DNA of 64,000 nt from an uncultured Desulfovibrionaceae bacterium (GTDB taxonomy: Bacteria; Desulfobacterota; Desulfovibrionia; Desulfovibrionales; Desulfovibrionaceae). The position numbers and the translations under genes were made by a program. Position 1 is the stretch's first letter. Each line of letters opens with the position of its first letter. The stretch is from positions 1,582 through 65,581 of the forward strand of contig CAYJNA010000001.1 of the NCBI GenBank assembly GCA_964371225.1, read 5' to 3'. Positions 1-39,242 of the stretch are shown here, piece after piece. A model generated the notes under the pieces. It was not told where the DNA came from. It did not search any database and saw nothing but the letters and a program-made list of their open reading frames with translations.

Positions 1-431
1 CCTAGCACCAAGGATGAAGCCAAAAATGCCCCTGAAACACAAATTTCTTGCCAAAAAGGTACCAAGGACACGGTATAAATCTTGCTCATGGCATAATTTA
101 GCACAAGGGCGGCCAGTCCGGCTAACCATAAAAACAATTTTTCTTGTTTATACACATACCAAAAAAGTATGGCTGTAAAAAGACCTACAAAGAATATTTC
201 ACGGCTTAACCATGAGAAAAAAATATTATTAATGGTAAAAACACTATGCGATGGGGCGCTTAAGTGTAAAAGGGAGAAAACCGTGCCTGCCAGAGCGAGG
301 CCTAAAGCACATCGGCTCCAACAATGCTGCGTACGTGCTTTTTCTCCGCCAAGTGCGGCTTGCAACAGAACCATACCGGCCGAGGCTTGTACAAGCAGGG
401 TAAAGAAGATAAGACTCCACATTCCTTCCAT
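1..431 (-). CDS. dmsC: DmsC-like membrane anchor subunit of a DMSO-reductase-family enzyme (N-terminal part only; runs off the left edge)
   Basis: Not in the ORF track because no stop lies in the window. Minus-strand ATG at 431..429, 2 nt after the dmsB stop. Hand translation MEGMWSLIFFTLLVQASAGMVLLQAAL...FFSWLSREIFFVGLFT is multi-TM hydrophobic, with the SWLSRE motif I associate with DmsC-type anchors. Third position after dmsA-dmsB. Confidence 0.6.
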   Translation of the reverse strand, partial: MEGMWSLIFFTLLVQASAGMVLLQAALGGEKARTQHCWSRCALGLALAGTVFSLLHLSAPSHSVFTINNIFFSWLSREIFFVGLFTAILFWYVYKQEKLFLWLAGLAALVLNYAMSKIYTVSLVPFWQEICVSGAFLASSLVL

Positions 432-433
432 GG

Positions 434-1072
434 TTATACCTCCTCGGGGTTACTTACAAGGGTGCCACGAATGCCATCATCACTTCCCTGAGGTTTAGCA
501 TGCCTATTAGGCACACAAAAGAGATGAGGCTTGGTAATAGACGCTGGTGGTAGAGGTGCCATTTCCTTGGTATAACCAGTTTCTTCTTGTAAGTGAACGT
601 AATTCCCCGTACCTAAAGCACGACAAGGACAAGCGGCCACACAAGCCGGCTCTTTATCTTGTTCAAGGTAATCGCGGCAAAAATCGCACTTACTCATGCG
701 TTTAATTTCTGCATTAAATTGCGGCGCACCGTAGGGGCAATTCCACTCACAATAGCGGCAACCAACGCATAAATCTTGATTAACGCTTACAATACCATCG
801 GAATCCTTATGCATGGCTCTTGTGGGGCAGCCTTTCACGCAGGTGGGGTCTTCGCAATGATTACAAGAAATGGATGTATAGTAGGCAAAAACATTTTGCT
901 CATAGGCGCCATTGCTCATTTCTAACCATTCTCCGCCAGAAAATTCCAAGACACGACGCCACTTTACATTTCGTGGTAAATTATGTTTATCCTTACAGGC
1001 AATCATACAGGCTTTACAGCCAGTACAAAGCTCACTATTGAAGGTAAATGAAGGTTGTCTTAACATATACAT
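434..1072 (-). CDS. dmsB: 4Fe-4S ferredoxin-type electron-transfer subunit of a DMSO-reductase-family enzyme
   Basis: 212 aa with four Cys clusters (CTGCKACMIAC, CNHCEDPTC, CVGCRYCEWNC, CDFC...C...C) typical of DmsB/NrfC/PsrB. Directly downstream of the molybdopterin subunit. Confidence 0.85.
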   Translation of the reverse strand: MYMLRQPSFTFNSELCTGCKACMIACKDKHNLPRNVKWRRVLEFSGGEWLEMSNGAYEQNVFAYYTSISCNHCEDPTCVKGCPTRAMHKDSDGIVSVNQDLCVGCRYCEWNCPYGAPQFNAEIKRMSKCDFCRDYLEQDKEPACVAACPCRALGTGNYVHLQEETGYTKEMAPLPPASITKPHLFCVPNRHAKPQGSDDGIRGTLVSNPEEV

Positions 1073-1095: not shown

Positions 1096-3516
1096 CTAGG
1101 CTCGTTCAATTTGCACAAGATTAGAGTGATGTGGATTACCCTTGGCTAAAGCAGTGGGCTTAAGCTCGGTAAGCACATTAATGCAACCATTACGATCCAT
1201 ACCGTTGGCGTCCGGTGTGTGCCACGCACCTTGCGGTAATGAAACAACCCCCGGCATAATCCTCGGAGTCACGCGTGCAGGCACATAGGTAACGCCACGT
1301 TCATTATAAATTTTAACTTTCTGCCCATGCTTTATACCGCGAGCTTTAGCATCTAAGGGGTTAATCCAAACATCTTGTGGGGCAACTTCTTGTAACCACC
1401 AGCAATTTCCATAACTTGAATGTGTACGTTGCTTATAGTGATGCCCTATAAGTTGTAAAGGATAGGTTTTGCGTAAAGCACTCATGGCGCCTTCAGGGTC
1501 AGCAATATATTCTGGTAGCGGGGTAATGGCTTGCCCCTCTTCCAGCTTCCATGTTTTGGCTTTTTCCGCCAAGGCTGCAGAGTATATTTCAATTTTTCCG
1601 GAAGGTGTTTGTAAGGGATTGGCCACAGGATCATCACGGAAAGCTTTATAAGCAATGTGATTTTTGGGGAAATACTTTTTATATACGCCAAGGGCAAAAG
1701 CTTCTTCCAATGTGGGTGGTAAATCAGGCACATTTTTACGGGAGAGTTCATATAAATGTTCTAACCACTGGTACTGGGTGCGGCCTTCGGTAAACTGTTG
1801 TTTTAAGCCCATTTTCTCGGCAATGCCGGCACAAATATCATAAATACTCATACTTTCACCCAAGGGCTCAATACATTTTTCTCCAAAGATAACATAGCCA
1901 ATATTACTATCACCTGCCGCTGCCCAGTCATGCTCTTCTAAGTTAGAACATACAGGGAGAAGGAAATCTGCATAGCGTGCCGATGGCGTAAGCGTGGTAT
2001 CTAATACCACAATAGTTTCACACTTGCTTTCATCTTGTAAAATGGGATTCATTTGATTAATGCCACCATGCTGATTGGTGATGCAGTTTCCGGCATAATT
2101 CCAAAAGAATTTTATGGGGGCAATGAGTTTATCTCTCCCACGCACACCGGCACTTTCGGCGGTCATGGTGGTATAATCATCAATGGCTTCATACCAATTA
2201 AAGCAAGATATAGACGTTTTTATAGGATTAGTAAGTGTGGGGAAGCTGGCCATACCAAGACCAAAGCCGCTATTTTCTCTGGCGCCGGTATTACCGCCTG
2301 CTATACCCACATTACCTGTGAGCACTGCTAACATACCTATGGCACGAGAAAGATTTTCTCCATTGGTAGTACGCTGTGGCCCCCAACCTTGACAAATAAA
2401 GCAAGGCTTTGCGGCGGCCATTTCACGGGCAAGGCGTTGAATTTTGGGGGCAGGGTAGCCGGTAATGGCTGCAGCCCATGCAGGGGTTTTGGCAAGTTTA
2501 TCCGGCCCAAGGCCAAGAATATACGACTTATATGAAGAGTTTTTAGGTGCGCCTTCAGGTAAGGTGTCTTCATCGTAGCCTATGGTATAGGTATCAATAA
2601 AGGCTTTATCCACTAGGTTTTCTGTAATCATCACATGGGCAAGAGCCGCACATAAGGCTGTGTCTGTGCCGGGGCGAATGGGCACCCATGTATCTCCAGA
2701 AGATACCATGGTATCTGAATAACGCGGGTCAATCATAATCATACGCGTATTTTTACTAAAACGTGCGTGTTGTAGCGTTTTGGCTTTACAGCCTGACATA
2801 CGTGTTTCTGAAGGGTTATTTCCAAAAAATACGGCAAGTTCACTGTTTTCTATGTCAGAAAGCCCATTACCATCTACCCAACCGCCACCATATAAATAGG
2901 GCATGCCTACGGTGATTTGACATGTGGAATAGTCGGAATAATGGTTTAAGTACCCGCCTAAAAGATTCATAAGCCGTGCCACAGGAGTAGCCGCAGGAGG
3001 CCAGCTTTTCCCCATGGTACTGCCAAGGGCGCCGGTACCGTAATTCAAGTACACGGATTCATTTCCATAAGTATCAAGGGTTTTCTTCAGACGCTGTGCC
3101 AGCTCCTCAAAGGCTTCTTCCCAGCTGATGCGCTCAAATTTTGCTTCACCGCGTTTGCCTACACGCTTTAAGGGGTAGGGTATACGCTCTTCTGCATAAA
3201 TGCGTTGACGCATGGAACGCCCGCGCGGACAAGCACGTAATTGCTGTGTGCCGTAAGCGTCATCGCCGGTATTGTCGGTTTCAATGCGAGTAATGACACC
3301 GTCCTTCACATGAACACGCAATGCACAGCGGCTACCGCAGTTTACATTACATGAGTTCCAAAAGACTTTATCGAGGTTTTTAGGGAGTTTTTCACTGGCT
3401 TTAGCTTCACCAGCATTAAAAATTTCTATGGTCATGGGGAAAACGGAGGAAGCAAGTACCATACTGCCCCCCTTGAGGAAAGATCTGCGATTAAGCCTAT
3501 CTGTATCGTGAGACAT
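1096..3516 (-). CDS. dmsA: Molybdopterin (bis-MGD) oxidoreductase catalytic subunit, DmsA/YnfE type, Tat-exported; substrate not determinable
   Basis: 806 aa. Twin-arginine signal (RRSFLKGG). N-terminal FS0 Cys motif CNVNCGSRCALRVHV as in DmsA. Length and order A-B-C match DmsABC. Confidence 0.85.
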   Translation of the reverse strand: MSHDTDRLNRRSFLKGGSMVLASSVFPMTIEIFNAGEAKASEKLPKNLDKVFWNSCNVNCGSRCALRVHVKDGVITRIETDNTGDDAYGTQQLRACPRGRSMRQRIYAEERIPYPLKRVGKRGEAKFERISWEEAFEELAQRLKKTLDTYGNESVYLNYGTGALGSTMGKSWPPAATPVARLMNLLGGYLNHYSDYSTCQITVGMPYLYGGGWVDGNGLSDIENSELAVFFGNNPSETRMSGCKAKTLQHARFSKNTRMIMIDPRYSDTMVSSGDTWVPIRPGTDTALCAALAHVMITENLVDKAFIDTYTIGYDEDTLPEGAPKNSSYKSYILGLGPDKLAKTPAWAAAITGYPAPKIQRLAREMAAAKPCFICQGWGPQRTTNGENLSRAIGMLAVLTGNVGIAGGNTGARENSGFGLGMASFPTLTNPIKTSISCFNWYEAIDDYTTMTAESAGVRGRDKLIAPIKFFWNYAGNCITNQHGGINQMNPILQDESKCETIVVLDTTLTPSARYADFLLPVCSNLEEHDWAAAGDSNIGYVIFGEKCIEPLGESMSIYDICAGIAEKMGLKQQFTEGRTQYQWLEHLYELSRKNVPDLPPTLEEAFALGVYKKYFPKNHIAYKAFRDDPVANPLQTPSGKIEIYSAALAEKAKTWKLEEGQAITPLPEYIADPEGAMSALRKTYPLQLIGHHYKQRTHSSYGNCWWLQEVAPQDVWINPLDAKARGIKHGQKVKIYNERGVTYVPARVTPRIMPGVVSLPQGAWHTPDANGMDRNGCINVLTELKPTALAKGNPHHSNLVQIERA

Positions 3517-3715
3517 GGGTATCTCCTTTTAATTAAGGTAGACGTTGCTTTGTTTGTACATAGAGCACCTCTTTTTAAATAATACCTGTTTAATGTTTTG
3601 GCACTAGGAAAAACCAAAAAAATCTTTTTATAACATACATGACAATGGGGTATTGCCTATGATACGAAACTTAAGAGAAAAATGAGATTTTTTTTAACCT
3701 GTAAGGAGATTTTTT

Positions 3716-3943
3716 ATGAAAGCTAGTATAACATATTGCTCTGCTTGAAATTATGAACCCAAAGCAGCTAGTTTAGCTGCAAAAATACAAGAGAGCTTAG
3801 GCGCTACCGTGGAGCTTATTGCTGGAAGTGGCGGTATTTTTGACGTAAAGGTGAATGATGCCCTTGTCTACTCTAAAGCAGATACAGGCACCTTTCCTGA
3901 TGAAGAAGTTTTATTGAAAGAGCTACAAGCAAAGTATCTGTAA
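3716..3943 (+). CDS. SelW/Rdx-family selenoprotein with an in-frame UGA (Sec) codon at 3746..3748
   Basis: SD AAGGAG at 3703..3708, ATG 3716, TAA 3941. Translation MKASITYCSA-U-NYEPKAASLAAKIQESLGATVELIAGSGGIFDVKVNDALVYSKADTGTFPDEEVLLKELQAKYL has a CxxU redox motif and the GSGGxFxV core of the Rdx/SelW fold. A hairpin lies just after the UGA and tRNA-Sec is in the same window. The ORF track misses it because TGA was read as stop. Confidence 0.8.
3764..3780 (+). promoter_or_regulatory. Putative bacterial SECIS hairpin
   Basis: Perfect 7-bp stem GCAGCTA / TAGCTGC with GTT apical loop, starting 15 nt after the in-frame TGA. Position and G-U in the loop fit bSECIS expectations. Confidence 0.5.
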
Positions 3944-3966
3944 AATTTATGTAATTTAAAATACAA

Positions 3967-3997
3967 AACCTCGTATGAAAGCATGCGAGGTTTTTTT
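3967..3997 (+). terminator. Rho-independent terminator after the SelW-like gene
   Basis: Stem CCTCGTATG / CATGCGAGG (one G-U pair), AAAG loop, followed by TTTTTTT. Confidence 0.6.
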
Positions 3998-4183
3998 GTA
4001 TTTTTTAACAGTGAGTGTGTACACGCTCATTCTTGAAATAATTATGATTTTATTTGAAAAATCTATCAAAGCACTTGACAGATAGTCATTAAAGCAGCAA
4101 ATATTAAGGGCATCACAAAGCTTACATATAATTCATCACACATATATTTTTTGCGTAACAACTCAGCAGATCCGAGGTAAAGT

Positions 4184-5512
4184 ATGAAATTTTCAAGGAT
4201 TCTTTACTGTTGCATGTTTTTGCTCACTCTCTTGTTTACCTACTTTAAAGCTCAAGACTTATTTGATGAGAGTGAAAGAAAGGTAACTAGCCTTTCTAAG
4301 GGTTACGCAGAGCGCATTCAAGCGGTTGTACATCAAGTTATTGGTGACGCACAAAAACTTGAAAAAATCTTCAAATTATATGGCGACAATATCACAAAAA
4401 AAGAATTCGAAGACGTAGCTGCTATTATTTTTAATGACAGTTATTTTCTGGTTATTTCCTATCAACCTGATGGTATTGTAAAATATGTCTATCCGCCTGA
4501 ACCATATCAATGGTATGTAGGCATGAATCTTTTAGAGCGTGATGATACTAAAGTAGATGCTTTATACGCCAAAAATAGCGGTCGTACGGTTTTTTCTGGG
4601 CCAGTTAAAATTGTAGATTATGAAGGTATCATAGCCCGTCGTCCTGTTTTGACAGAAGTGGACAATAGGCAGGTTTTTTGGGGCTTTGTGACCATTGGCT
4701 TTGACAGTAAAAAGTTTCTGACAAATATTATTGAAGTGCAAACTCTTACAAACTTTAACTATGAATATGCCATTGAAACTGTCTATCAAGGCAAACATAT
4801 TCCCGTACTAAAAAGTACTAATTTTGAAAAAGAAAAAGCCACTAAAAGAGTTCTTACCGTGGGAGATCAAACATGGCTTTTTTACTTATATGATAAAAAT
4901 GCTTCCAAGAATTTTTTGATAACTATTCTATTCTACTTTTTTATTTATTTTTCCATGTCCACTGCTATTTACGTTATTTTACGTAAATACGAAATAAAAA
5001 GCCAAAATGCCAAAAAAATGTCCTATATTGATGCACTTACCAAGGCATACAACAGGAAAATTGTTGATGAATATATGGAACATTTCGAAAACGAAATACA
5101 AAAAGGTTTTAGCCTTTTTTATATTGATTTAAATGATTTTAAACCAGTCAATGATATTCATGGCCATGAAGTTGGTGATAGATTACTTATAGCATATGTA
5201 GAACGTGTAAAGCATAAATTTAAACAATCTACAATAGTTGTACGCATGGGAGGTGATGAGTTTGCCATTATTCTTAATGAAAATCTTAATGAAAAAGCCA
5301 TTGCCTCTGTAACACAACGTATTGAAGTTCTATCTAAAGATGTGTTTACCATAAACGGCATAGCTATTCACATTTCAGCCAGTATAGGGCATGCACAATA
5401 CCCTGCTGACGGTGATAATATAACAGAAATATTAGCTAAAGCTGATGAAAAAATGTATGCGTGGAAAAGACGCGTTAAGGCAGAGCGTGCACAAAATGCA
5501 GCCAAGTCATAG
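4184..5512 (+). CDS. Membrane diguanylate cyclase with a periplasmic CHASE-like sensor domain and a GGDEF domain
   Basis: 442 aa. N-terminal TM, a roughly 230-aa extracytoplasmic domain and a second TM. The C-terminal domain has an intact RMGGDEFAII active-site motif. Confidence 0.85.
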   Translation: MKFSRILYCCMFLLTLLFTYFKAQDLFDESERKVTSLSKGYAERIQAVVHQVIGDAQKLEKIFKLYGDNITKKEFEDVAAIIFNDSYFLVISYQPDGIVKYVYPPEPYQWYVGMNLLERDDTKVDALYAKNSGRTVFSGPVKIVDYEGIIARRPVLTEVDNRQVFWGFVTIGFDSKKFLTNIIEVQTLTNFNYEYAIETVYQGKHIPVLKSTNFEKEKATKRVLTVGDQTWLFYLYDKNASKNFLITILFYFFIYFSMSTAIYVILRKYEIKSQNAKKMSYIDALTKAYNRKIVDEYMEHFENEIQKGFSLFYIDLNDFKPVNDIHGHEVGDRLLIAYVERVKHKFKQSTIVVRMGGDEFAIILNENLNEKAIASVTQRIEVLSKDVFTINGIAIHISASIGHAQYPADGDNITEILAKADEKMYAWKRRVKAERAQNAAKS

Positions 5513-5516
5513 TATT

Positions 5517-6413
5517 TTACAACGTTTTATCTGACTTTGCTTTAATGGGTATGCTCCCCAATCCTATACCCACAAGGATAAAAAATCCGGCGAGGAGAAG
5601 TTCTTTGTCAATTTTTTCTCCAAGTAGCCATAAGGAAAAGGCTATACCCACTATGGGGGTGGCTAGTAAGCCTAAAGAGGTTACTATGGCTGGTAAGTGA
5701 CGATTTATAACCGTCATACCCCAAAAACCAAAAGCTGTGGCTAAAAGCCCGCTATAGGCCAATTGCATAATAAGGGTGGGGGTAAAGTGTACATGGGGGA
5801 TGCCTTCCATAAAAATAGCAACCATAGCCGAAAGTATGGAAGCTAGTAACAATTGCCAGAAAACAAGTTGAAAGGATGAGGCATGCCATGCGACAACTTT
5901 AATACCGATAATGGTAATGGCCCAAGAAAACGATGCTGCAAGCAACAAAGCATTTCCAATAAGCTCTGGCCCTATCTGCAATGAATGCATGGCAGGTGCA
6001 AAAAAAATAGCTACACCTACTATTCCTAAAATAACGCCTATGATACGCAAAGAATGTATAGGCTCACGTAAAAAAAATATTGCCGCTGGTGTAACCCATA
6101 GAGGGGTTGTATACCCTAAAATTACAGAACGTCCCACAGAGGCATATTGTAAGCCCACAGCCATTAATGACGCAAATATGGTCATATGAAAAACGCTTAC
6201 AATAAGGATGGCTGGTAAATCTTTTTTCGTAGGTAGTATAAATTGTCTTGTACTTACTTGTAAAAGCAAAATGGCAGCAGCGGCTATAATGGAGCGCAAA
6301 GCATTAGACCAAAATGGAGGTACAGAAAGAACAATAAGTTTTGTGACTGTCCAATTTGTTCCCCAAATAAGTATTATAAAAATAAAAAGTAGTAATGCCT
6401 GTCTTTGTGTCAT
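5517..6413 (-). CDS. EamA/DMT-family transporter
   Basis: 298 aa, about 10 TM helices, two-fold internal EamA-like repeat pattern. Confidence 0.8.
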   Translation of the reverse strand: MTQRQALLLFIFIILIWGTNWTVTKLIVLSVPPFWSNALRSIIAAAAILLLQVSTRQFILPTKKDLPAILIVSVFHMTIFASLMAVGLQYASVGRSVILGYTTPLWVTPAAIFFLREPIHSLRIIGVILGIVGVAIFFAPAMHSLQIGPELIGNALLLAASFSWAITIIGIKVVAWHASSFQLVFWQLLLASILSAMVAIFMEGIPHVHFTPTLIMQLAYSGLLATAFGFWGMTVINRHLPAIVTSLGLLATPIVGIAFSLWLLGEKIDKELLLAGFFILVGIGLGSIPIKAKSDKTL

Positions 6414-6808
6414 AATGTATACATATAACTATAAGTTATATTTTGCTTTGTGGTGTTTTATAGCCGTAAAAATTGTAGCAAACTTTGCCGTAAATAAAAA
6501 TCTAAAAAATTTTTTAAAGGTTAATACTTAAAATCCTACCATTAAGCAAGGCATGTACGGCGTAAAATAAGCCGTCACTTGCTTACGGCGTCCCCGAAAG
6601 GGGTATTTGGAGTGAGCGCACCTTTCTTAAAAACTAGTGGAAACATGTTTTTAAGCATCGAGTAAATAGTTTTTCAAGTTCAGATAACTATTTAAAATAG
6701 TATAGTTATTTTATTTATTGATGCGATAATTTGACATTTATGTACAAAATCTTACTTTAAAAGAATCATTGCATTTTCATTTAATATTTTATTCTAGAAG
6801 AGCTTTGC

Positions 6809-9800
6809 ATGTCTACATATACTAATACAAAATATATATTTTTGAAAGAGCTTTATGCTAAAAGCCCCTGTCCCATATGTTGCATACGAGAAACAGGGGA
6901 ATTATTGTATGCCTCGGAGAGTTTTTTACATTTTTTTAATGCAAAAAGCATTGAATTATGTCAAAATATTCTTTTTCACGACAATAAAACTACCAATTTT
7001 GAAAATGAAAGTTTTACGCAATTATTGATGCATCATTGTAAAATTGCACTACAAAAAGGTGCAAGTCAATTTTCGTGGTTGCATCAAAATATTGCTAAAA
7101 ATAACAATGCTATACAATATACCATAACGTGCATATCTTATCAAAATGAAAGAATCTGTGTTTTACAAATGATTCCAGAAGAAATCTCTTCTAGTTTACA
7201 AAGCAATAACGAATCATTCACAGATGTCATATATATGAGCCCTATTCCCATATGTATATGGGAAAATAAAGATACTATTATTGATTGTAATAAGGCTTTT
7301 TTTACTCTTTTAGGCTACGATACTAAAAATGAATCATTACAGAATTATCAAAAGTTTTTTTCCATCACTAATACAGATTCAGCGTGTACTGTAGATATTT
7401 TTGCTCAAGAAATTGAGCGTGCCTTCATTACTGGTTATTCCAGCAGAGAGTGGATGTGGCAAGGTAAAGATGAAAGTAAAATTCCTGTGCGTACATCTTT
7501 TTTGCGTATAATGTATAATGGAAAAAGTGTTGTAGCACTTTTTAATTATGATATTCGAGAGCTTCTTAGGTCACAACAAGAGGTAAAAGAAGCACAAGAA
7601 ATGCTACAAAAAATGCTAGATCAAATGCCTTTTGGTGTTAATTTAATAAATAAGGATTTTGAACTTATAGATTGTAATAAAAGTGCTTATAGTATGTTTG
7701 GGTTTAGCACGAAAGAAGAGTTCATGCAAAAATTTTATACTTTGTCACCAGAGTTTCAACCCAACGGAGAAAACACAAAAGACGCTACCATAAAAGCGCT
7801 CACACGCACTTTTGATGAAGGCTATATTCGTTTTGAATGGATGCATATTGATAAGTACGGCCATCCTCTTCCTGTAGAAGTAACTGCAGTACGTACAATG
7901 TATAAAAATGAAGCTATGGTTTTAGGGTACACAAGAGACTTGCGTGAAATAAAAGCCATAGAAAAAAAAGCTACCTTTGTGGAAGAACGCAATACGCTTA
8001 TTACTGAAAATGTGCCTTTATGTATATTTTTCTGGAATAAAGACGGCCATATTTTTGACTGTAATATGGAAGTGTTAAAGACCTTTAATCTTGCTAATAA
8101 ACAAGAATTTATAACAAATTTTTATGCTCTGTCTCCTAAATTTCAACCACAAGGAGAAGTTTCTAAAGATATGGTTAAGCACAATAATGCTGAAGCATTT
8201 AAAACAGGGTATAAAAGCTTTGAATGGTTACACCAAAGTCTTGACGGAACATTGATTCCCATGGAAATCATCCTTGTTCGCTCTACCTTGGAAGGGGAAG
8301 ATGTTTTAGTTACCTTTGCAAGAGATTTGCGCGAACTGAAAAAAACACAAGAACTTGTCAAAGAGGCAGAGCTTCGTAATACTTTAATGTTAGACTCCTT
8401 ACCCTTGTGCGTACATTTTTGGGATGAAAACGGAGAGCTTATTTACACCAATCTAGAAGGTGCTAATATTTTTGGTTTTAGTAGTAAAGAAATCTATTTA
8501 GAAAACTTCCGTAAAACTGTGCCTGAGGTACAGCCTGATGGAATTTCTTCTTTCACTCACATTTCAAACCTTATTAAGGAAGGGTTTGAGAAAGGCGTTG
8601 CCAAAGCAGAAATGCTTGGCAAACATGCTTTTACACAGGAAGAAATTCCTCTTGATATACTTGTTATGCGTACATCCTATCAAGGTAAGCAGGGATTAAT
8701 TGCCTATTTGAAGGATTTGCGAGAGCATAGAGCCATGCTTAAGGAAATTCATACCAATGAGCAAGAGTTACGTAAAGCTAAAGACGTGGCAGAAAAAAGT
8801 GCTCAGGCTAAAAGTGAATTTTTAGCAAATATGAGCCATGAAATTCGTACACCTATGAATGGGATTTTAGGCCTTTTACATTTACTTAATCAAACAAAAC
8901 TCGAAAAAACACAAGAAACATATGTAGAAAAAAGTCTTTTATCTGCCAATAACCTTATGCGAATTATCAACGATATTCTTGATTTTTCAAAAATTGAAGC
9001 TGGCAAGCTTGAAATGGAAGAATCTCCATTTACTCTTCACGAGCTGTGTGCAGAAGTAGAGTCTTTATATGCTCCTATGGCTGCAGATAAAGGATTAATA
9101 TTTAATATTAAACCTGGAAATTTTGCAAAAACTGTTTTACTGGGTGATGCGCTACGTTTAAAGCAAGTTCTTTTTAACTTGGTAAGTAATGCCATAAAAT
9201 TTACTCGCTCAGGCACTGTTTCTTTAGAAATAGAAAGCACCTTCAAAGGAAAAGACGAGCTAGGCTGTTTATTTGCAGTACGTGATACGGGCATTGGTTT
9301 AAGTTCAGAGCAAATAGGGCGTTTATTTTCTGCATTTTCACAAGCAGACACGTCCGTTACACGAAAATTTGGGGGTACAGGTTTAGGTCTTGTTATTTCC
9401 AAAAGTATTATTAAGATGATGCGCGGTAAAGTTTGGGTTGAAAGTGAACTAGGTAAAGGATCCACTTTCTTTTGCTCAGCTGTGTTAAACATTAGTCAGG
9501 ACAATTTACAGCTCCTCAAGAACGAATTGCAAAGCGTACAAGAAGAAGTATGTTCAGAGAATTGTGGTCATTTACTTTTGGCGGAAGATAACGATATTAA
9601 CCAGCTTGTGGCCAGCGAAATTTTACAAAGTGCCGGATATACCTTAGATATAGCCAATGACGGCGTAGAGGCTTTAAAGCTTTTAGAAAGCAATACGTAT
9701 GATGCTATTCTTATGGACATACAAATGCCGCATATGGATGGCTATACTGCTACAATAAACATTCGTAAACAAGAAAAATACGCCAATTTGCCTGTGATAG

Positions 9801-9940
9801 CCATGTCTGCTCATGCCATGAAGGGGGATAAAGAAATGAGTATATCCCATGGTATGAACGATCATATTACAAAACCCATTGATCCGGAAGTGCTGTATAA
9901 AACTCTGCAGTATTGGATTACCAATAATAAAAAAATGTAA
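6809..9940 (+). CDS. Soluble hybrid sensor histidine kinase (about five tandem PAS modules, HisKA, HATPase_c, receiver)
   Basis: 1043 aa with no TM segment. Repeated PAS modules share the LSP(E/K)FQPxGE..S..(F/W)EW pattern. H-box [11 protein letters not shown]-boxes DTGIG/GGTGLGL, and a C-terminal REC (LLAEDNDIN...[10 protein letters not shown]). Confidence 0.9.
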
Positions 9941-9950
9941 AAGCCATAAA

Positions 9951-9985
9951 AAAAACTCCCGCAATATTGTGGGAGTTTACTTTTA
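9951..9985. terminator. Bidirectional hairpin between the kinase gene and tRNA-Sec
   Basis: AAACTCCC-(10 nt)-GGGAGTTT flanked by an A-run and T-rich sequence. On the minus strand the stem is followed by a long U-run, so it also fits termination of the ubiX/tRNA-Sec transcript. Confidence 0.5.
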
Positions 9986-9989
9986 TAGT

Positions 9990-10083
9990 TGGCGGAGGCG
10001 TATAGGAGTCGAACCTACCACGGACATCTCTGCCCGCCACTGGTTTTGAAGACCAGGCGCAACACCGGTTACGAAACGCCTCC
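9990..10083 (-). tRNA. selC: tRNA-Sec (anticodon UCA)
   Basis: 94-nt minus-strand sequence GGAGGCGTTTCGTAACCGGTGTTGCGCCTGGTCTTCAAAACCAGTGGCGGGCAGAGATGTCCGTGGTAGGTTCGACTCCTATACGCCTCCGCCA. It has an 8-bp acceptor stem (GGAGGCGT/ACGCCTCC) and anticodon stem CTGGT/ACCAG with loop CTTCAAA (UCA). It also has a long variable arm, GGTTCGACTCC T-loop and encoded CCA. The layout parallels E. coli selC. Confidence 0.9.
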
Positions 10084-10130
10084 AAGCGAAGAATTTTCTA
10101 CACGAAATAGGTTAGAAAAGCAAGATAAAA

Positions 10131-10697
10131 TTATGCATTATCCTGCCAGCGGGTGCAGAGTGTATGCTTTATATGTAATTGGTCTAAAAGGCGTCCGCAA
10201 AAATGCTGTAAGCAGCTTTCCATGTCTGTAGCCTTGGTATAAAAAGCAGGGCTAAACGGCATTATGGTGGCACCATGTTGGCTTAAACGTAACATGTTTT
10301 GTAAATGAATGGGGCTAAGTGGTGTTTCCCTTGGCACAATAACCAAAGGGCGACGTTCTTTAAGGCAAACATCGGCGCTGCGATGCAAAAGATTGCTACC
10401 AATGCCATGAGCCATATGCCCCAAAGAATTCATGGAGCAAGGGCAAATTATCATGCCGTCATGTTGCCATGAACCAGACGCAGGGCCAGCGGCCATATCT
10501 TGTGCATCATATACTTTGTGAGCAAAATTTGTATAAGCGGATAAAGGAAGGGCGCCTTCTGTTTGCATAACATACTGCGCCCCTTGAGATATGATAAGAT
10601 GCACTTCTACGGACTGTAGTACATGCAGGTGTTGCAACAAGGTCAAAGCTAAGGGCATACCGCTGGCACCGCTGATGCCCACTATAATACGTGGCAT
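10131..10697 (-). CDS. ubiX: Flavin prenyltransferase UbiX
   Basis: 188 aa. MPRIIVGISGASGMPLAL N-terminus, CPCSMNSL and PRETPLS motifs typical of UbiX/Pad1. Confidence 0.85.
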   Translation of the reverse strand: MPRIIVGISGASGMPLALTLLQHLHVLQSVEVHLIISQGAQYVMQTEGALPLSAYTNFAHKVYDAQDMAAGPASGSWQHDGMIICPCSMNSLGHMAHGIGSNLLHRSADVCLKERRPLVIVPRETPLSPIHLQNMLRLSQHGATIMPFSPAFYTKATDMESCLQHFCGRLLDQLHIKHTLCTRWQDNA

Positions 10698-10707
10698 GCC
10701 CCTATAC

Positions 10708-11343
10708 CTATTGTAAACGTGTATTGACAGAAGGCTCCACCTTAACGGGGGCTGTGTTTTCTACCAAGAGTGGGGGAACATCTGGCGTAATGGGCACAGT
10801 AGCTGTTCCCATGGCCAGCACGTCATTGCTAGGAGTATGCAACAAACGCATGCTGTAGCGCACTTGTTCAGGCGTTATAACATAGGTTCCCGTAAGTACT
10901 GCTATGCTAGTGGCGGTTTTTCTAGCCAATTCTTCTCTGTCACGAGTGAGTAGCATTTCACCGGTTTTTTCTTGAAAGCGTAATTCCTTACCCTTACGAA
11001 TTTCTTTTACTCTGTAGCCAGCAGTCACAAACCAGCGTGACATTTCCTCAGAAATTTGGCGAGCCAAGGCATTGGAAAGCTGTAAATTATTTAAGTTTAC
11101 GGGCACAGTGGTCATAATGGTTATGGTGCTACGTAACTGTCTTTGACGAGCCTCTAAAAGCTCTTTGGGGGTGGTGGCAAGGGTAACATTGCCACGCTGC
11201 ATGATTTGTGCGTCCATTTGCTCTGCCATATCATTGGCAGCGCGAGGGCCATAGCCTGAACCTACAACGCCATTCATGGCTGATACACAACCTTGGCCTA
11301 ATAATGCAAAAGAAAGTAAAAAAAGAAAAATATATTTATGCAT
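10708..11343 (-). CDS. Lipoprotein, FlgO-like (putative)
   Basis: 211 aa. Lipobox LLGQGC. The core resembles the FlgO pattern as I remember it (ARQISEEM...GYRVKEIR...LLTRD...AVLTGTYVITPEQV...RLL). Confidence 0.45.
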   Translation of the reverse strand: MHKYIFLFLLSFALLGQGCVSAMNGVVGSGYGPRAANDMAEQMDAQIMQRGNVTLATTPKELLEARQRQLRSTITIMTTVPVNLNNLQLSNALARQISEEMSRWFVTAGYRVKEIRKGKELRFQEKTGEMLLTRDREELARKTATSIAVLTGTYVITPEQVRYSMRLLHTPSNDVLAMGTATVPITPDVPPLLVENTAPVKVEPSVNTRLQ

Positions 11344-12614: not shown

Positions 12615-13709
12615 ATGACACAAAGCCCTGAAATACGAAGAAAGCCCACACGCTCTTTGCACCTTGGTACACAGCCCATAGGTGGTAATGCCCCCATACT
12701 TGTGCAAAGTATGTTAAATACGGACACTCGCAATGCTACGCAAAGCCTTGAGCAAATTGAAGCTCTTGTGGCTGTTGGCTGTGAAGCCGTGCGCTTGGCT
12801 GTGCCCGATATGGAAGCGGCTAATGCCCTGAAAATTATTGGACAAAAAGCACAAGTTCCCCTTATTGCCGATATTCATTTTGATTATCGCTTAGCTGTGG
12901 CTTCTTTGGAAGCTGGAGTGCAAGGTTTACGGATTAATCCCGGTAATATTGGTTCAGAGCAAAATGTAGATTGTGTGGTAGCAGCAGCAAAAGCCCATAA
13001 TGCTCTTATTCGCATAGGGGTTAATGGCGGTTCTCTTGAGAAAGAATTACGACAAAAATACGGTGGCCCCACGCCGGAAGCCATGGTGGAAAGTGCTCTT
13101 TCACATGTACGAATTTTAGAAAAAAAAGGCTTTTACGATATGAAAATTTCGTTAAAGTCTTCTTCTGTGCTTGAAACCATAGCGGCCTATAAACTGTTAG
13201 CCACGCGCTGCGATTACCCTTTGCATGTGGGTATAACCGAAGCAGGGGGTTTATTGCGCGGTGCTGTAAAGTCTGCCGTGGGTCTTGGCATTTTATTTTG
13301 GGAAGGCATAGGCGATACTTTACGTGTATCTCTTACGGCAGATCCCGTGCAAGAAGTCATTGCCGCATATGAAATTTTACGTTCCTTGGGTTTGCGTCAA
13401 CGTGGGCCGGAAATCATCTCTTGCCCCACTTGCGGGCGTACAGAAATTGATCTCATGTCCTTGGCAGCAGCGGTGGAAGAGCGTTTAAAAACAGAAACAC
13501 TTCCTCTCAAAGTTGCGGTCATGGGTTGCGTTGTCAATGGCCCCGGAGAAGCTCGTCATGCTGATATTGGTTTGGCTGGCGGTCGTGACAAAGGAAGTAT
13601 TTTTTGCAAAGGCGAAGTGATACGCACTGTAAAAGGGCAAGAGGAATTACTTGCAGCTTTTATGGAAGAATTAGATAAACTTATTACATTAAAAAAAGAG
13701 CAGGAATAA
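12615..13709 (+). CDS. ispG: 4-hydroxy-3-methylbut-2-enyl diphosphate synthase
   Basis: 364 aa. GcpE hallmarks ([34 protein letters not shown]). Confidence 0.95.
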
Positions 13710-13711
13710 TC

Positions 13712-15439
13712 ATGCGTTGGAGCACAAGCTACATTCCCACACTGAAAGAAGCTCCGGCTGATGCCGAAGTTATTAGCCATCAACTCCTTATACGTGCCGG
13801 CATGGTGCGTAAGGTCACATCTGGCATATACATATATCTTCCTTTAGGTTTAAAAGTTCTTGAAAAAGCAAAAAATATTATACGCACAGAAATGAATAAA
13901 GCCGGTGCGCAGGAGCTTTTATTGCCTGCAGCCCAACCGGCGGATTTATGGCAAGAAACAGGTCGTTGGGAGTTTTACGGCAAAGAGCTTTTACGCTTTA
14001 AAGACCGTCATGACCGCGATTACTGTCTTGGGCCTACTCATGAAGAAATTATCACTGACCTTGTGCGTGGTGAAGTGCGCTCCTATCGCCAACTACCTAT
14101 GAATTTGTATCAAATTCAAACAAAATTCCGCGATGAAATTCGCCCTCGCTTTGGTCTTTTGCGCGGCCGCGAATTTATGATGAAGGATGCCTATTCCTTT
14201 GACGCCACCGACGAAGGCGCGGATATCTCCTATAAAAAAATGTTTGAAGCCTATACCAAAACTTTTTCGCATATGGCTTTAAAGTTCCGTGCTGTGGAAG
14301 CAGACTCTGGCTCCATTGGCGGAAATTTTTCCCATGAATTTATGGTATTGGCTGATACCGGTGAAGATACCATTGCTGCGTGTACAGCATGTTCTTTTGC
14401 TGCAAATATTGAGCGCGCCGCCGTGCTCTGGCAGGGCGAAGTGTGTACAGATTCTTGCCCAGAGCATGTAGAAGTAAGCACACCGCAAGCCCACACTGTG
14501 GAAGAAGTGTGTGCCTTTATGCATATAGAACCCAGCACGCTTATTAAAACATTACTTTTTGACGTGGACGGACAAGGCGTAGCCGTACTTGTGCGCGGAG
14601 ATCACAGCGTTAATGATGTAAAGTTAAAGAACTTCCTTAATGCTACTGTGGTGGAAATGGCCAGCCCTGAACAAGTGGAAGCATGGACAAAGGCCAAAGT
14701 GGGCTATGCAGGGCCCGTAGGTCTTGATGCAAATATTAAAATTTACGCTGACGCAGTTTTACAAGCCTCCACTGATTGGGTTTGCGGTGCCAACAAAAGC
14801 GATACGCATTTAAAGCATGTGAGCTTAAGCCGCGATTGTAAGGTGGAAGCCTATGCAGATTTTCGTGAAATTTTAGCCACAGATCCTTGTCCTCAATGCG
14901 GCGGCGCTTTAGACTTGCCCAAGGGTATTGAAGTGGGGCATATCTTTAAACTGGGCACCAAGTACAGCGAAGCCATGAAGGCCACCTTCCTTGATAGTAA
15001 TGGCAAAGAACAAGTTATGATTATGGGCTGTTACGGCATTGGTGTTTCACGCGTTGTGGCTGCTTGCATTGAGCAAAACCATGATGAAAACGGCATTGTA
15101 TTCCCGCCGCCATTGGCACCTTTTGATGTGCATATGCTTAATTTAGACAGCAAAAGTGATGATGTTTGTGCGGCTATTTGCACAGTTAAAGAAACACTTG
15201 AAGGTATGGGACTTGAAGTACTTTTAGATGACAGAGAAGAGCGCCCCGGTGTTAAGTTTAAGGATGCTGATTTATTAGGTATGCCTTTACAAATATGCCT
15301 TGGTGGTAAAAGCCTTGCCCGTGGAGTTCTTGAAGCCAAAGATCGCCGTACCGGTGAAAAAGTGGAATTATCTCTTGAGAATTTCGCCACAGACTTTAGC
15401 GCATGGCAAAGCAAAGTTTTGGCAGGGTGGGGGCTCTAG
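13712..15439 (+). CDS. proS: Prolyl-tRNA synthetase (bacterial type with editing insertion)
   Basis: 575 aa. Class II motifs ([26 protein letters not shown]) plus INS domain. Confidence 0.95.
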
Positions 15440-15442
15440 GTC

Positions 15443-16903
15443 TTGAGCACAATTTTCACTGTTCGTGAAATTACCGCTACTATTAAAGGTAATTTGGAAA
15501 AAAACTTTCCTTTTGTTTGGGTTAAGGGTGAGGTTAGTAATCTTGCCCGCCCAAGCTCTGGGCATGTGTATTTTTCTCTTAAGGATAGTGACGCCTTACT
15601 TAATTGTGTTTGGTTTAAAAATGCCCAGCGCTCAGAAGAAAAATTTGACCCTCTCACAGGTGAAGTATTTGAAGATGGGCCACGCCCTTCTTTGGCACAT
15701 AGCCTTAAAAATGGACAAGAAATTCTTTGTGCTGGGCATATTTCAGTCTATGCGCCACGCGGTTCGTATCAATTAACGGTGAGCCTTGTGCAAGAGGGCG
15801 GAAAAGGGGCTTTATACGCTGCTTTTGAAGCGCTGAAGAGCAAACTTCATGCACAGGGCTATTTTGCCGCTGAGCGAAAAAAAGCTTTACCGTATAATCC
15901 GCAACGTGTGGCAGTGATCACCTCTCCTAAGGGTGCGGCCATATATGACTTTTTACGTATTACGCAAAGTGCCGGTACAGGCAGTGAAATACGTATTTTT
16001 CCCGTGCCCGTACAAGGAGAAACCGCAGCCCCCGCCATTGCGCAAGCCATAGCGCAAGCCGTGGAGCAAGATTGGGCTGAGGTCATCGTGCTTATTCGCG
16101 GTGGCGGCTCCTTAGAAGATTTATGGGCGTATAATGAAGAAGCGGTGGCAGAAGCGCTTTTTCAATGTTCTTTACCTGTATTGGCAGGTATTGGGCATGA
16201 GGTGGATGTATCCATAGCAGATATGGTGGCTGATGTGCGTGCGGCAACACCTACCCACGCGGCGCAATTGCTGTGGCCTAGTCGTGAAGATCTTATGCAA
16301 ATGGTGGACAACCTTGAATGGACTTTACAAGAAGCTGGGCATACCTTTTTGCAACGCTTTGCGCTAAGATTGCAACATCAAGAGCAAGCGTTAAAATGGC
16401 TTTCTCCTTTACAAGCCTGGCAACGCAAAGAAGAACTTTTACGACAAAATAAAGCGCGACTTATGCAATGCATGGAGCAGCAGCTTTTTTTGAAAGAGCG
16501 AGAACTTACGCGTGAATGGCAAGCATTGCCACAAATAACGCGACACATTGAGCAAAGACAAAGCGTATTGCATGCCTTGGAAATGCGTCTGGAACATGCC
16601 ATGCAAGGCCTATTGCATAAAAAAGAAAGAGATTTCACATGGCTTGAGCATAAGGTGCCCGGCATTATGCAGGCTCAAGAAGAAAAATATCAACTGGAAT
16701 TGCAAAGCTTGCATGTGCAGTTGGAAGCCATGAATCCCATGGCGCCTTTACGTCGTGGTTATGCGCTTATGCAAACTAAGGACGGTTCTGTGGTTCGCTC
16801 CATACATGATGTAACTGCAGGGCAAGAGATACATATGCAGGTGGCCGATGGACATATTGGCGCCCTTGTACAACATACACAGGCTTCCTCTGTTAAAAGC
16901 TAA
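15443..16903 (+). CDS. xseA: Exodeoxyribonuclease VII large subunit
   Basis: 486 aa, TTG start. N-terminal OB fold (VWVKGEVSN...SGHVYFSLKD), GRGGGS-like IRGGGSLEDLW motif and a C-terminal coiled coil. Confidence 0.9.
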   Translation: MSTIFTVREITATIKGNLEKNFPFVWVKGEVSNLARPSSGHVYFSLKDSDALLNCVWFKNAQRSEEKFDPLTGEVFEDGPRPSLAHSLKNGQEILCAGHISVYAPRGSYQLTVSLVQEGGKGALYAAFEALKSKLHAQGYFAAERKKALPYNPQRVAVITSPKGAAIYDFLRITQSAGTGSEIRIFPVPVQGETAAPAIAQAIAQAVEQDWAEVIVLIRGGGSLEDLWAYNEEAVAEALFQCSLPVLAGIGHEVDVSIADMVADVRAATPTHAAQLLWPSREDLMQMVDNLEWTLQEAGHTFLQRFALRLQHQEQALKWLSPLQAWQRKEELLRQNKARLMQCMEQQLFLKERELTREWQALPQITRHIEQRQSVLHALEMRLEHAMQGLLHKKERDFTWLEHKVPGIMQAQEEKYQLELQSLHVQLEAMNPMAPLRRGYALMQTKDGSVVRSIHDVTAGQEIHMQVADGHIGALVQHTQASSVKS

Positions 16904-16926
16904 GGAATTTTTAAGGTTATATATTT

Positions 16927-17166
16927 ATGAAAACAAAAGCCCTTCCCAAAACTTTTGAAGCCCGTATGGAACGCTTGCAAAATATTGTAAGTGCCATGGA
17001 AAAAGGGGAAGCCCCCTTAGAAGAAAGCGTGGCTCTTTATAAAGAAGGAATGGAACTTGGCGCCGCGTGCCGTAAACAATTGGAAAAAGCTCGCCATGAT
17101 ATACGTTTGTACGGAGAAAAGGGCGAAGAAGATTTTGATGTAGAAAGTGCAGGAGAAGAAGCATGA
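16927..17166 (+). CDS. xseB: Exodeoxyribonuclease VII small subunit
   Basis: 79 aa. FEARMERLQNIVSAMEKGEAPLEESVALYKEG is classic XseB. 4-nt overlap with ispA as in the conserved xseB-ispA-dxs operon. Confidence 0.85.
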   Translation: MKTKALPKTFEARMERLQNIVSAMEKGEAPLEESVALYKEGMELGAACRKQLEKARHDIRLYGEKGEEDFDVESAGEEA

Positions 17167-18137
17167 GTCAAGAGCATATTTTAGAACCTCAAGCCGTAAA
17201 AGCTATTTTAAAAAGCAAAGGTGCTTTGGTGGAACAGTGGCTTGGCCAATGTTTAAAAGCTTCTGCCATGAATAATTGTCAAGGGCATGCCACGCCGCCT
17301 TTTTTGCCTTCATCTTTACGTGAGGCCATGGAATATAGCCTTTTAGCTGGCGGCAAGAGATTACGCCCAGTGCTGTGTTTAACCACAGCGAAATTGTGTG
17401 GTCTTGAAGAAGAAAAAGTACTTCCTTTTGCTGCTGCCATTGAATTTATTCATACATATTCACTTATTCATGACGATTTACCCGCCATGGATGATGATGA
17501 TTTACGCCGCGGAAAGCCTTCGAGTCATAAGCAATTTGGTGAGGCCATGGCCATTTTAGCCGGAGACGCTTTACTAACAGATGCCTTTGTGTTCATGACG
17601 TCTGTGTCTTCATGCTGTTCCACCGGTGCTATTCCTGCAGAGCAAGCCTTACGTGCTGTGGCCTACATAGGCCGAGCCGCCGGATCGCATGGCATGGTGG
17701 GCGGGCAAGTGCTTGATATGAAATATACAGGCGAAAAAGATATTACCCTAGAAAAACTACGTACCATGCATGCCATGAAAACAGGCGCCCTCATTCAAGC
17801 CTCATGCGTATGCGGCGCATTATTGGCCGGTGCTTCGTTGGAAGTGGTCAAAGCTCTTGAAGTTTATGGCGCCGCTTTAGGCACAGCTTTTCAAATTGCC
17901 GATGATATTTTAGATGTCACTGCCGACACTGCCACCCTTGGTAAGCCCGCCGGTTCGGACACAGAACAAGGGAAAAATACCTATCCTTCCTTGGTGGGAT
18001 TGGAACAAAGCCGTCATTTGGCAGAAGAACAAAAGAAAATGGCCTTAGATTCTTTGGCTCACCTTCCTCTTTTTGCTGGGGAAGAAAGCGCCTTTTTACG
18101 CGGCCTTGCCTCTTATGTTGTGGCACGTACGTCATAA
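17163..18137 (+). CDS. ispA: (2E,6E)-farnesyl diphosphate synthase / polyprenyl synthetase
   Basis: 324 aa. First DDxxD motif (LIHDDLPAMDDDDLRRG) and second (FQIADDILD). Confidence 0.85.
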   Translation: MSQEHILEPQAVKAILKSKGALVEQWLGQCLKASAMNNCQGHATPPFLPSSLREAMEYSLLAGGKRLRPVLCLTTAKLCGLEEEKVLPFAAAIEFIHTYSLIHDDLPAMDDDDLRRGKPSSHKQFGEAMAILAGDALLTDAFVFMTSVSSCCSTGAIPAEQALRAVAYIGRAAGSHGMVGGQVLDMKYTGEKDITLEKLRTMHAMKTGALIQASCVCGALLAGASLEVVKALEVYGAALGTAFQIADDILDVTADTATLGKPAGSDTEQGKNTYPSLVGLEQSRHLAEEQKKMALDSLAHLPLFAGEESAFLRGLASYVVARTS

Positions 18138-18188
18138 ACATAAGAAATAAAAATTACTTCATTACAATTTATATCCATTGGAAAATAT

Positions 18189-23024: not shown

Positions 23025-23864
23025 CTACTGTATAAAGGCGTGGTGAGAATTCATAAAAGTATTAACCACAAGGATAGAAAAAGCGCTTAAAGCAAAAAGC
23101 CATAAGGCCAAGAGAGCAGGCTTTCGCCCACCGCGTCCTTGTAGAGTGCGCATATAAAAAAGCCAAGCAAACAGCCCCCATACAAGAAAGGAGACTATTT
23201 CTTTAGGGTCACCGCTAACGGATTTTCCCCAAGTGCTGCCAGCCCATATAACACCAGAAACAATGCCAATGGTAAAGAGGGGAAAACCTACCATGGCTGT
23301 AACGGCATTGACCTTATCTAAAATGGCCAAGGCTGGAAAGTCTTTACGAAAGCCCGTAAGAGGCTCTTTTGATTTTATCATATTTTCCGTATGGATAAAC
23401 ATAATTCCCGCTGCAAAAGCCAAGGTCATGAGAGCAAGGCTTAAGTAAAGAGAACCAATGTGCAAAGTATAAAAAGTACCGCTTAATGATTCCGGTAAAG
23501 TTATTTGAGCTTGTAATAAGCGCAAAGAGAGTAAAAAAAGCATTAAGGCTAACGGTGTAAGAAATATAATGGGGGTAGAATGTTTTGTTTTCCATTGTCC
23601 GAAAAAACCGCAAATAAGGATAAACCATGCTAAAATTTGTAAATAAGCCCCCCAGCTTAGGCCGCCAGGTGTCAGTCCATGACTTCCTCTAGCCATATCG
23701 AATGTTTGCAAAGCAAAGCCGCCCACTGTGCATAGACAAGCCACAATACGTAACCACCGTTGACGTAGTAAAATGCCTAAAATCCCGCATAAGGTGGCAA
23801 TACCATAGAAAAGTATAATGAGTGTATTACTTTGCTCAAAAGATATCATGCAATAACTCCGCAA
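23025..23864 (-). CDS. Cytochrome c assembly family membrane protein (CcsA/HemX-like)
   Basis: 279 aa, about 8 TM. Degenerate Trp-rich motif region (IWAGSTWGKSVSGDPKEIVSFLVW). Sits just upstream of hemA like Bacillus hemX. Confidence 0.65.
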   Translation of the reverse strand: MRSYCMISFEQSNTLIILFYGIATLCGILGILLRQRWLRIVACLCTVGGFALQTFDMARGSHGLTPGGLSWGAYLQILAWFILICGFFGQWKTKHSTPIIFLTPLALMLFLLSLRLLQAQITLPESLSGTFYTLHIGSLYLSLALMTLAFAAGIMFIHTENMIKSKEPLTGFRKDFPALAILDKVNAVTAMVGFPLFTIGIVSGVIWAGSTWGKSVSGDPKEIVSFLVWGLFAWLFYMRTLQGRGGRKPALLALWLFALSAFSILVVNTFMNSHHAFIQ

Positions 23865-24540
23865 TATGTTTATGTAAACTTTTAGGAAGCATGTTTTCTA
23901 AAAGTTTATAACTTTGTTCTGTATTTTTTTCAGCCAAATGATGCCTCAAGGGAGAGTTCACTAAAGCACGAAAAAGTGCCGTATTGTGCCTTGTATCTTG
24001 TTCTAAGGCAAGTACGAGAGGGCGTAATTTTCCTAAAAATCTTGTCATAGGAGCATGGGGTTTAAGCCAAGCTTCTAACTCTTCGCGTAAAACGCGCGCC
24101 CAAGCAGGGCTTGCCCCTTCGGTACTCAAAGCGGCCATAAGTGTGGAACCAGCCGTGATAGAATTTGTTCCTTCACAGGCACATTGTGCCAATGCCGGAA
24201 CAATGCAATTGCCTTTACGCGGTGCATCCACACAATTGCATAAGATACCACGCTCTTGGCATAAGGCCGCAATGTGTGCGTTTAATTCTTTTTGGCCTGT
24301 ACAAGCAAAAACTAAACTTTTTCCCTCAAGGTCTTGTTCTGTGAAGCAACGTTTTTCAAAGTGCCACTGTTCATAGTGTGCATATGCGTCCCACGCAGGG
24401 CTTTTTTCATGAATATCAAGAAGTAACAAATCTTTCACGTTAGCTTCAAGTAAACCTTTAGCCTTACGTAAGCCCACTTCACCAGCTCCGACAATAAGAC
24501 AATAACTTTTTGATATATCAATGAAAAGTGGGTAATACAT
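23836..24540 (-). CDS. Precorrin-2 dehydrogenase / sirohydrochlorin ferrochelatase (siroheme synthase N-terminal type)
   Basis: 234 aa. Rossmann VGAGEVGLRKAKGLLEA. CysG-N/SirC-like length. Overlaps the next gene by 29 nt. Confidence 0.7.
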   Translation of the reverse strand: MYYPLFIDISKSYCLIVGAGEVGLRKAKGLLEANVKDLLLLDIHEKSPAWDAYAHYEQWHFEKRCFTEQDLEGKSLVFACTGQKELNAHIAALCQERGILCNCVDAPRKGNCIVPALAQCACEGTNSITAGSTLMAALSTEGASPAWARVLREELEAWLKPHAPMTRFLGKLRPLVLALEQDTRHNTALFRALVNSPLRHHLAEKNTEQSYKLLENMLPKSLHKHIAELLHDIF

Positions 24541-37117: not shown

Positions 37118-37151
37118 GATACTGCTCCAATTAATGTTTTTATCGAATCTC

Positions 37152-37982: not shown

Positions 37983-38006
37983 ATACGCAATGCTCCTTAA
38001 ATATTT

Positions 38007-39233: not shown

Positions 39234-39242
39234 GATATATCC

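Follow-up and report, generated by a model that had tools for sequence, protein, structure and literature searches.

Positions 3716-3943 of the DNA analysed here very probably form a functional gene that encodes a small cytoplasmic SelW-like protein of thioredoxin fold, with SelB-dependent insertion of selenocysteine (Sec) at an in-frame UGA. The DNA is a single stretch of 64,000 nucleotides, which we call the window; the gene is referred to below as selW. The evidence comes from the protein family of the product, the alignment of its Sec with Cys in homologues, the conservation of the UGA among relatives, the conservation and covariation of a hairpin behind it, a tRNA-Sec gene in the same window and a terminator after the gene. 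A first-pass annotation had read this place as a selenoprotein gene of the SelW/Rdx type, in which a SECIS hairpin follows a Sec-UGA, and family profiles, the TGA found in 69 of 69 related loci, the covarying hairpin and the tRNA-Sec all bear out this core claim. Table 1 gives the coordinates.

Table 1. The selW gene, its signals and nearby genes, as positions in the window
Feature	Position	Strand	Details
dmsC, partial at window edge	1-431	-	PF04976, 39.9 bits vs 22.3
dmsB	434-1072	-	TIGR02951, 222 bits vs cutoff 214
dmsA/ynfE-type gene	1096-3516	-	TIGR02166, 1126 bits vs cutoff 778
Shine-Dalgarno AAGGAG	3703-3708	+	7-nt spacer to ATG 3716; read from sequence
SelW-like / Rdx-family selenoprotein gene (predicted)	3716-3943	+	75 codons + TAA, Sec at codon 11
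CxxU redox motif Cys8-Ser9-Ala10-Sec11 (predicted)	3737-3748	+	TGC 3737-3739, TGA 3746-3748
In-frame UGA, predicted to be read as selenocysteine	3746-3748	+	TGA at the aligned codon in 69/69 relatives
Bacterial SECIS hairpin (predicted)	3764-3780	+	7-bp stem, GUU apical loop, 22 nt from UGA to loop
Intrinsic terminator after selW	3965-4004	+	stem 3965-3994, then T-rich tail
tRNA-Sec gene (selC), anticodon UCA	9990-10083	-	ARAGORN; Rfam RF01852

The reading frame and its protein family

Translation of the segment gives 75 sense codons, closed by TAA at 3941-3943 and interrupted by a lone in-frame TGA. With that codon read as Sec, the product is MKASITYCSA-U-NYEPKAASLAAKIQESLGATVELIAGSGGIFDVKVNDALVYSKADTGTFPDEEVLLKELQAKYL. 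The Shine-Dalgarno sequence (SD), the ATG, the length of the frame, the TGA and the motif C-S-A-U at residues 8-11 were all found exactly where the first-pass annotation had put them. The gene is bracketed by the SD upstream and by a terminator downstream; the latter had also been claimed, and a terminator scan returned a stem of 13 pairs (5 of them G-C) with a 4-nt loop, followed by the T-rich tail TTTGTATTTT.

The six-frame list of open reading frames (ORFs) in the window has no entry between 3618 and 4183, because the in-frame TGA hides the gene; the earlier remark that a six-frame track misses it for this reason was correct. In a collection of 5.8 billion proteins, selW and its close relatives are likewise present only as truncated products of 44-60 aa. 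Automated gene calling truncates selW systematically, and because ORF callers cut the gene at the UGA and leave the collection with such fragments only, the selenoproteomes of genomes of this kind are under-counted. One of the truncated forms, from a relative that is 98% identical and lies on an NCBI contig of 84,626 bp, has 44 aa and begins at Val31; others have 56 and 60 aa. The counterpart of these gene-caller products in the window is 3806-3940.

We searched profile collections with the selW product after entering Sec as Cys. The product matched Pfam PF10262 (Rdx) with 66.3 bits (E = 2.9e-18; cutoff 22.6) over profile positions 3-72 of 74, and TIGR02174 (CXXU_selWTH) with 57.2 bits against a cutoff of 34.2. 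Both curated cutoffs were passed, in agreement with the SelW/Rdx-like identity proposed at the outset. The top-scoring NCBIfam model was the equivalog NF041051 (SelTWH_Campy, 'SelT/SelW/SelH family (seleno)protein'); its score of 79.6 bits lies below the cutoff of 88, and we therefore file selW under the broad Rdx family only. These matches support the prediction that 3716-3943 encodes an Rdx (SelT/SelW/SelH) family protein of the prokaryotic 'SelW-like' type.

Matches to solved structures extended over residues 3-70 and comprised MIEN1 (2LJK), mouse SelW (2NPB) and the bacterial entries 2OJL, 3DEX, 2FA8, 2OKA, 2P0G and 2OBK, the best PDB match being MIEN1 2LJK (E = 2.3e-8). Four of them, 2LJK, 2OJL, 3DEX and 2FA8, were aligned residue by residue, and in each case C8 and U11 fall exactly on the CxxC motif. 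The check on the Rdx alignment for which the first-pass annotation had called thus places the UGA codon on the second Cys of CxxC in solved Rdx structures. From the similarity to these structures we infer a thioredoxin-like fold for the selW product. Such a fold, together with a presumed redox role, has been assigned to the Rdx family (Dikiy et al. 2007, as cited in PMC4840926).

Conservation of the UGA and of the hairpin behind it

A genome scan with peptide words from the Sec-form query, YEPKAASL among them, retrieved 69 related loci. The nearest are from metagenome-assembled genomes (MAGs) of uncultured Desulfovibrionaceae, with 65-76% identity, and the remaining loci are from Gammaproteobacteria, Verrucomicrobiota, Planctomycetota, Gemmatimonadota, Acidobacteriota, Myxococcota and Actinomycetota. 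TGA stands at the codon aligned with the window TGA in all 69, and C-x-x-TGA is invariant; because the query words favour Sec forms (YEPKAASL overlaps the SECIS), this count is too high as a measure of how common Sec is in the family at large, and we read it as conservation of the Sec form, not as a family ratio of Sec to Cys. The flanks are also kept in the relatives, with a start codon about 10 codons upstream, the segment I-x-Y-C-x-x, and a downstream frame of about 60 residues. The presence of the same TGA in every locus, with both flanks conserved, excludes a private nonsense mutation. The first-pass annotation had made its proposal depend on Cys or Sec at the aligned position in homologues and on conservation of the 3' part of the frame as protein. 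Both were found: the position is occupied by Cys in the four solved structures aligned residue by residue and by a Sec-UGA in the 69 loci, and the 3' frame is conserved at the protein level over its roughly 60 residues.

The hairpin behind the UGA, GCAGCUA-GUU-UAGCUGC, pairs perfectly and starts 15 nt 3' of the codon. It is the minimum-free-energy (MFE) structure of the 55 nt that follow the UGA. Its folding is by itself unexceptional (z = -1.6), and 13 of 200 shuffled sequences fold equally well. The published model of the bacterial SECIS (bSECIS), as summarised in a 2026 review, specifies a loop of 3-9 nt, a stem of 4-16 bp, G in the first two loop positions, a distance of 16-37 nt from UGA to loop and an MFE of at most -7.5 kcal/mol (PMC13188914, Fig. 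2A). All of these constraints hold for the window hairpin, which has a loop of 3 nt beginning with G then U, an upper stem of 7 bp, 22 nt between UGA and loop and an MFE of -10 kcal/mol. Its offset from the UGA is the same in nearly all of the related loci. Rfam, searched at permissive thresholds over window positions 3000-11000, returned no SECIS family at E <= 1, the tRNA-Sec being the sole significant match. The hairpin can also be read on the minus strand as 'terminator-like'; this reading was rejected, as the T tail is weak and the structure lies inside a conserved ORF.

Covariation was measured in 67 sequences (59 distinct), which align without gaps. Standard pairs are formed in 96.1% of the stem cells, compared with 17-52% when the 3' partners were slid by 1-3 columns. 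There are 46 cells with double changes, against at most 12 in the slid controls and a mean of 13.5 in shuffled alignments; 46 was not reached in any of 500 shuffles. The covariation score was 0.344 (shuffled mean 0.108), and this value too was reached by 0 of 500 shuffles. The number of pairs with double changes, which is 3, was not above the shuffles, 74 of 500 of which reach that count.

The stem codes for Ala-Ala-Ser-Leu-Ala-Ala, and its variable pairs, columns 21/33 (Ala/Ala) and 24/30 (Ala/Leu), are third-codon positions that are free at the protein level. Six pair types occur at the former (CG, GU, UG, AU, GC, UA) and three at the latter (CG, UA, GC). That synonymous third positions change together is direct evidence that RNA pairing is under selection in addition to the coding function. 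The claim of a SECIS-like hairpin with a 7-bp stem and a GUU loop 15 nt after the UGA is therefore upheld, both by its fit to the bSECIS model and by its covariation in relatives. The locus is a textbook case of dual coding, in which the Ala-Ala-Ser-Leu-Ala-Ala segment doubles as the SECIS stem-loop and synonymous sites covary. Selection on the pairing also accounts for the near-invariance of NYEPKAASLAA in Sec forms of different phyla, since the nucleotides that encode this peptide make up the SECIS as well. Protein and RNA constraints overlap in this region (window 3749-3781; aligned in loci L001-L067), and Cys-form Rdx proteins read QW(L/P)(L/P)RAAW at the same position.

Decoding of the UGA and rival readings

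The Sec-decoding trait is defined by selA, selB, selC and selD jointly (PMC1794560). Of these, the window holds selC alone: an NCBIfam scan of 40 large ORFs from across the 64 kb found no SelA, SelB or SelD. The tRNA-Sec gene that had been noted 6 kb from selW was recovered by both ARAGORN and Rfam, the match to RF01852 scoring 82 bits (gathering score 47) and spanning model positions 1-91 of 91. Since this tRNA-Sec is intact, the genome is likely to decode Sec. We also inspected all frames of the window that are delimited by TAA or TAG and contain one or two in-frame TGAs, and found nothing convincing as a further selenoprotein gene beside 3716-3943.

In E. coli fdhF and fdnG, the bSECIS hairpin serves as a tether for SelB. 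The arrangement in the window resembles theirs in that the hairpin lies directly 3' of the UGA inside the ORF and has G then U in its apical loop; the sequences are unrelated, and the window hairpin differs in its 3-nt loop and in its perfect 7-bp stem, which lacks a bulged U. By analogy with bacterial Sec decoding as it is known, translation of selW would start at ATG 3716, and the Sec-specific elongation factor SelB would bind the hairpin through its G-first apical loop at the UGA. SelB would carry Sec-tRNA(Sec), the tRNA coming from the selC gene of Table 1, and termination at the UGA would give way to selenocysteine insertion. The product would then possess a selenenylsulfide redox centre, Cys8-x-x-Sec11, and would be expected, as a member of the Rdx family, to act as a thiol-dependent oxidoreductase.

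The use of stop codons in the window bears on how a UGA is read. None of 35 ORFs of at least 250 aa ends in TGA, and the 46 likely non-overlapping genes end in TAA (36), TAG (9) or TGA (1). TAG is commoner than TGA as a stop in the window, which is unusual for bacteria. A reassignment of UGA was considered and rejected: coding coverage barely moves, from 0.892 under table 11 to 0.904 with TGA as sense (table 4), and TGA closes two genes, a cysG-N-like gene (23836-24540, minus strand) and the small xseB (16927-17175, plus strand). The code is therefore standard. In the low-GC Desulfovibrionaceae relatives (L001-L006, L010 and L014), TGA accounts for 2 of 37 stops, and around the gammaproteobacterial selW loci for 48 of 85 (~56%). 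Because both groups keep the TGA of selW, the Sec-UGA is maintained in TGA-poor and in TGA-rich stop backgrounds.

The in-frame TGA could in principle be the scar of a mutation. If a Cys codon of an Rdx gene (TGT or TGC) had changed to TGA, selW would be a pseudogene that yields only a 10-residue peptide, with the remainder decaying. A nonsense mutation does look like an in-frame stop, and the hairpin alone is not significant. However, all 69 relatives, which belong to many phyla, carry this TGA, and the downstream frame is intact and conserved as far as a shared stop region; moreover, the hairpin covaries at synonymous sites, a tRNA-Sec is present, and SD and terminator are intact. The comparative data effectively refute the pseudogene reading, to which we give almost no credence. 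It is also highly improbable that the UGA is passed without Sec, by near-cognate read-through as Trp or Cys or by reassignment, or that only a downstream fragment is made, for example from the GTG at codon 31. The rarity of TGA stops (1 of 46 in the window and 2 of 37 in the low-GC relatives) is what read-through or reassignment might lead one to expect, and the 44-aa product from Val31 of the 98%-identical relative looks like such a fragment. Against this, the code is standard, with at least two genes that end in TGA and the small change in coverage described above, and the Sec-specific signals, namely the fit to the SECIS model and the tRNA-Sec, are present. The N-terminal 10 codons, which include the partner Cys and which a fragment would lack, are kept in all relatives, and the same TGA is kept even where TGA makes up about 56% of stops. 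These observations favour Sec insertion at the UGA.

A further proposal concerns the genes on the other side of selW. The divergent neighbour is, on its profile matches, a real dmsABC-type operon, whose dmsA starts at 3516 (minus strand), 199 bp from selW. The first-pass annotation had remarked on this operon and on the shared intergenic region, and had speculated about a tie to selenate reduction through the DmsA paralogues YnfE and YnfF. The operon and its divergent layout were confirmed; a functional link was not. We consider it very unlikely that selW is coupled through a shared control region to the dmsABC/YnfE-type reductase, in selenate reduction or selenium handling. The divergent arrangement over 199 bp speaks for such coupling, as do the score of DmsA with TIGR02166, the 'DMSO/selenate family reductase' subfamily model (1126 against 778 bits), the presence of dmsB and a partial dmsC, and the recurrence of the adjacency in one related locus, L001. 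But L001 is the closest relative and probably belongs to the same genus as the window, its DmsA being 92% identical, so that the shared adjacency carries little weight. In L001, moreover, dmsA and selW are separated by a 277-aa MoaF-like gene (5055-5888, plus strand; PF22036 match weak, 28 bits with the cutoff at 27), and the SD AAGGAG with the ATG is the only well conserved block upstream of selW between L001 and the window. At the remaining 68 loci neither DmsA nor DmsB occurs near selW, except for a weak DmsB-like ferredoxin match about 6 kb away in L029, and over the 69 loci the neighbours are clade-specific, none being common across phyla or with the window. Because the adjacency is confined to L001, with an inserted gene and unconserved upstream DNA, the selenate link is not supported. 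The DmsA of the window passes the subfamily model only and falls below the specific models for YnfE (1041 < 1675), YnfF (994 < 1650) and DmsA itself (PRK14990, 1073 < 1600). A broader idea about this low-GC Desulfovibrionaceae lineage has two parts: its near-avoidance of TGA stops might stem from a shift in the balance of RF2 termination against UGA recoding, and selW might be a physiological partner of the DMSO/selenate-family molybdoenzyme next to it, for example in redox reactions or selenium handling. Taken jointly, this is a long shot; what speaks for it is the adjacency within one genus and the skew in codon usage, and nothing more.

Known SelW-like proteins and other contents of the window

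Among prokaryotes, SelW-like CxxU proteins form an established family of selenoproteins, with more Sec forms than Cys forms (PMC1088965, PMC1794560, PMC2398784). Since 2005, beginning with the Sargasso Sea, no other family of prokaryotic selenoproteins has been described as more abundant in marine metagenomes (PMC1088965). In GOS (2008) they again ranked first, Sec forms numbering 427 and Cys forms 56 (PMC2398784). By 2006 the family was known from 10 completely sequenced bacterial genomes, those of Desulfotalea and Geobacter (deltaproteobacteria) among them, and its ancestral state was proposed to be Sec (PMC1794560).

The window gene shares with the prokaryotic SelW-like proteins of Zhang and Gladyshev the Pfam/TIGRFAM family, the N-terminal CxxU and the size of about 75 aa. 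As in those genes, the bSECIS lies in the coding region straight after the UGA and has G in a small apical loop, and deltaproteobacterial sulfate reducers are among the many phyla and groups from which such proteins are known. There is no substantive difference; the window copy lies in a low-GC (42%) genome, apparently of the Desulfovibrionaceae, stands beside a dmsABC-type operon and scores just under the NF041051 cutoff. The selW gene matches the description of the SelW-like family in every tested respect, and the family, the motif, the SECIS type and the distribution were already known. The main value of the finding is one of annotation. It opens no new biological question, and the locus gives no new handle on the biochemical role of bacterial SelW-like proteins.

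The Cys-form Rdx proteins of known structure (2OJL, 2FA8 Atu0228, 3DEX SAV_2001, 2OKA, 2P0G and 2OBK) are homologous to the selW product over residues 3-69, with E values from 1e-6 to 9e-4. In common with it they have an N-terminal strand with I-x-YC and the motifs G-x-G-G-x-F-(E/D)-(I/V) and FP, but Cys takes the place of Sec, and the proteins, which have extensions, reach about 105 aa. Behind the redox motif the sequences differ too: in the Cys forms, which are free of the SECIS constraint there, this segment reads (Q/N)W(L/P)(L/P)RA(A/G)W(L/M)AQE, whereas the window has NYEPKAASLAAK.

Mammalian SelW (2NPB) and MIEN1/C17orf37 (2LJK) belong to the same family and have CxxU or CxxC at the same position, with a presumed role as thiol-oxidoreductases; their cellular contexts are unrelated to that of the window gene. 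The decoding signals differ as well. Eukaryotic SelW uses a SECIS in the 3'-UTR together with SBP2 and eEFSec, according to the legend of Fig. 7 in PMC1088965, whereas the window gene has a coding-region hairpin predicted to act with SelB.

Elsewhere in the window, positions 35174-48728 carry a run of large ORFs on the minus strand (687, 276, 408, 884, 1063, 485, 404 and 308 aa), mostly without an NCBIfam match at E <= 1e-30. A SrfA-family protein is encoded at 45124-46581 (minus strand) and a TagQ-like type VI secretion-associated lipoprotein at 47802-48728 (minus strand), and the run may be a SrfABC-like virulence cluster or one associated with type VI secretion (T6SS). Positions 12615-20108 hold a housekeeping and isoprenoid run on the plus strand, with ispG, proS, xseA, xseB, an FPP synthase gene (ispA-type) and dxs. 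Near the tRNA-Sec gene, a UbiX-family flavin prenyltransferase is encoded at 10131-10697 on the minus strand.
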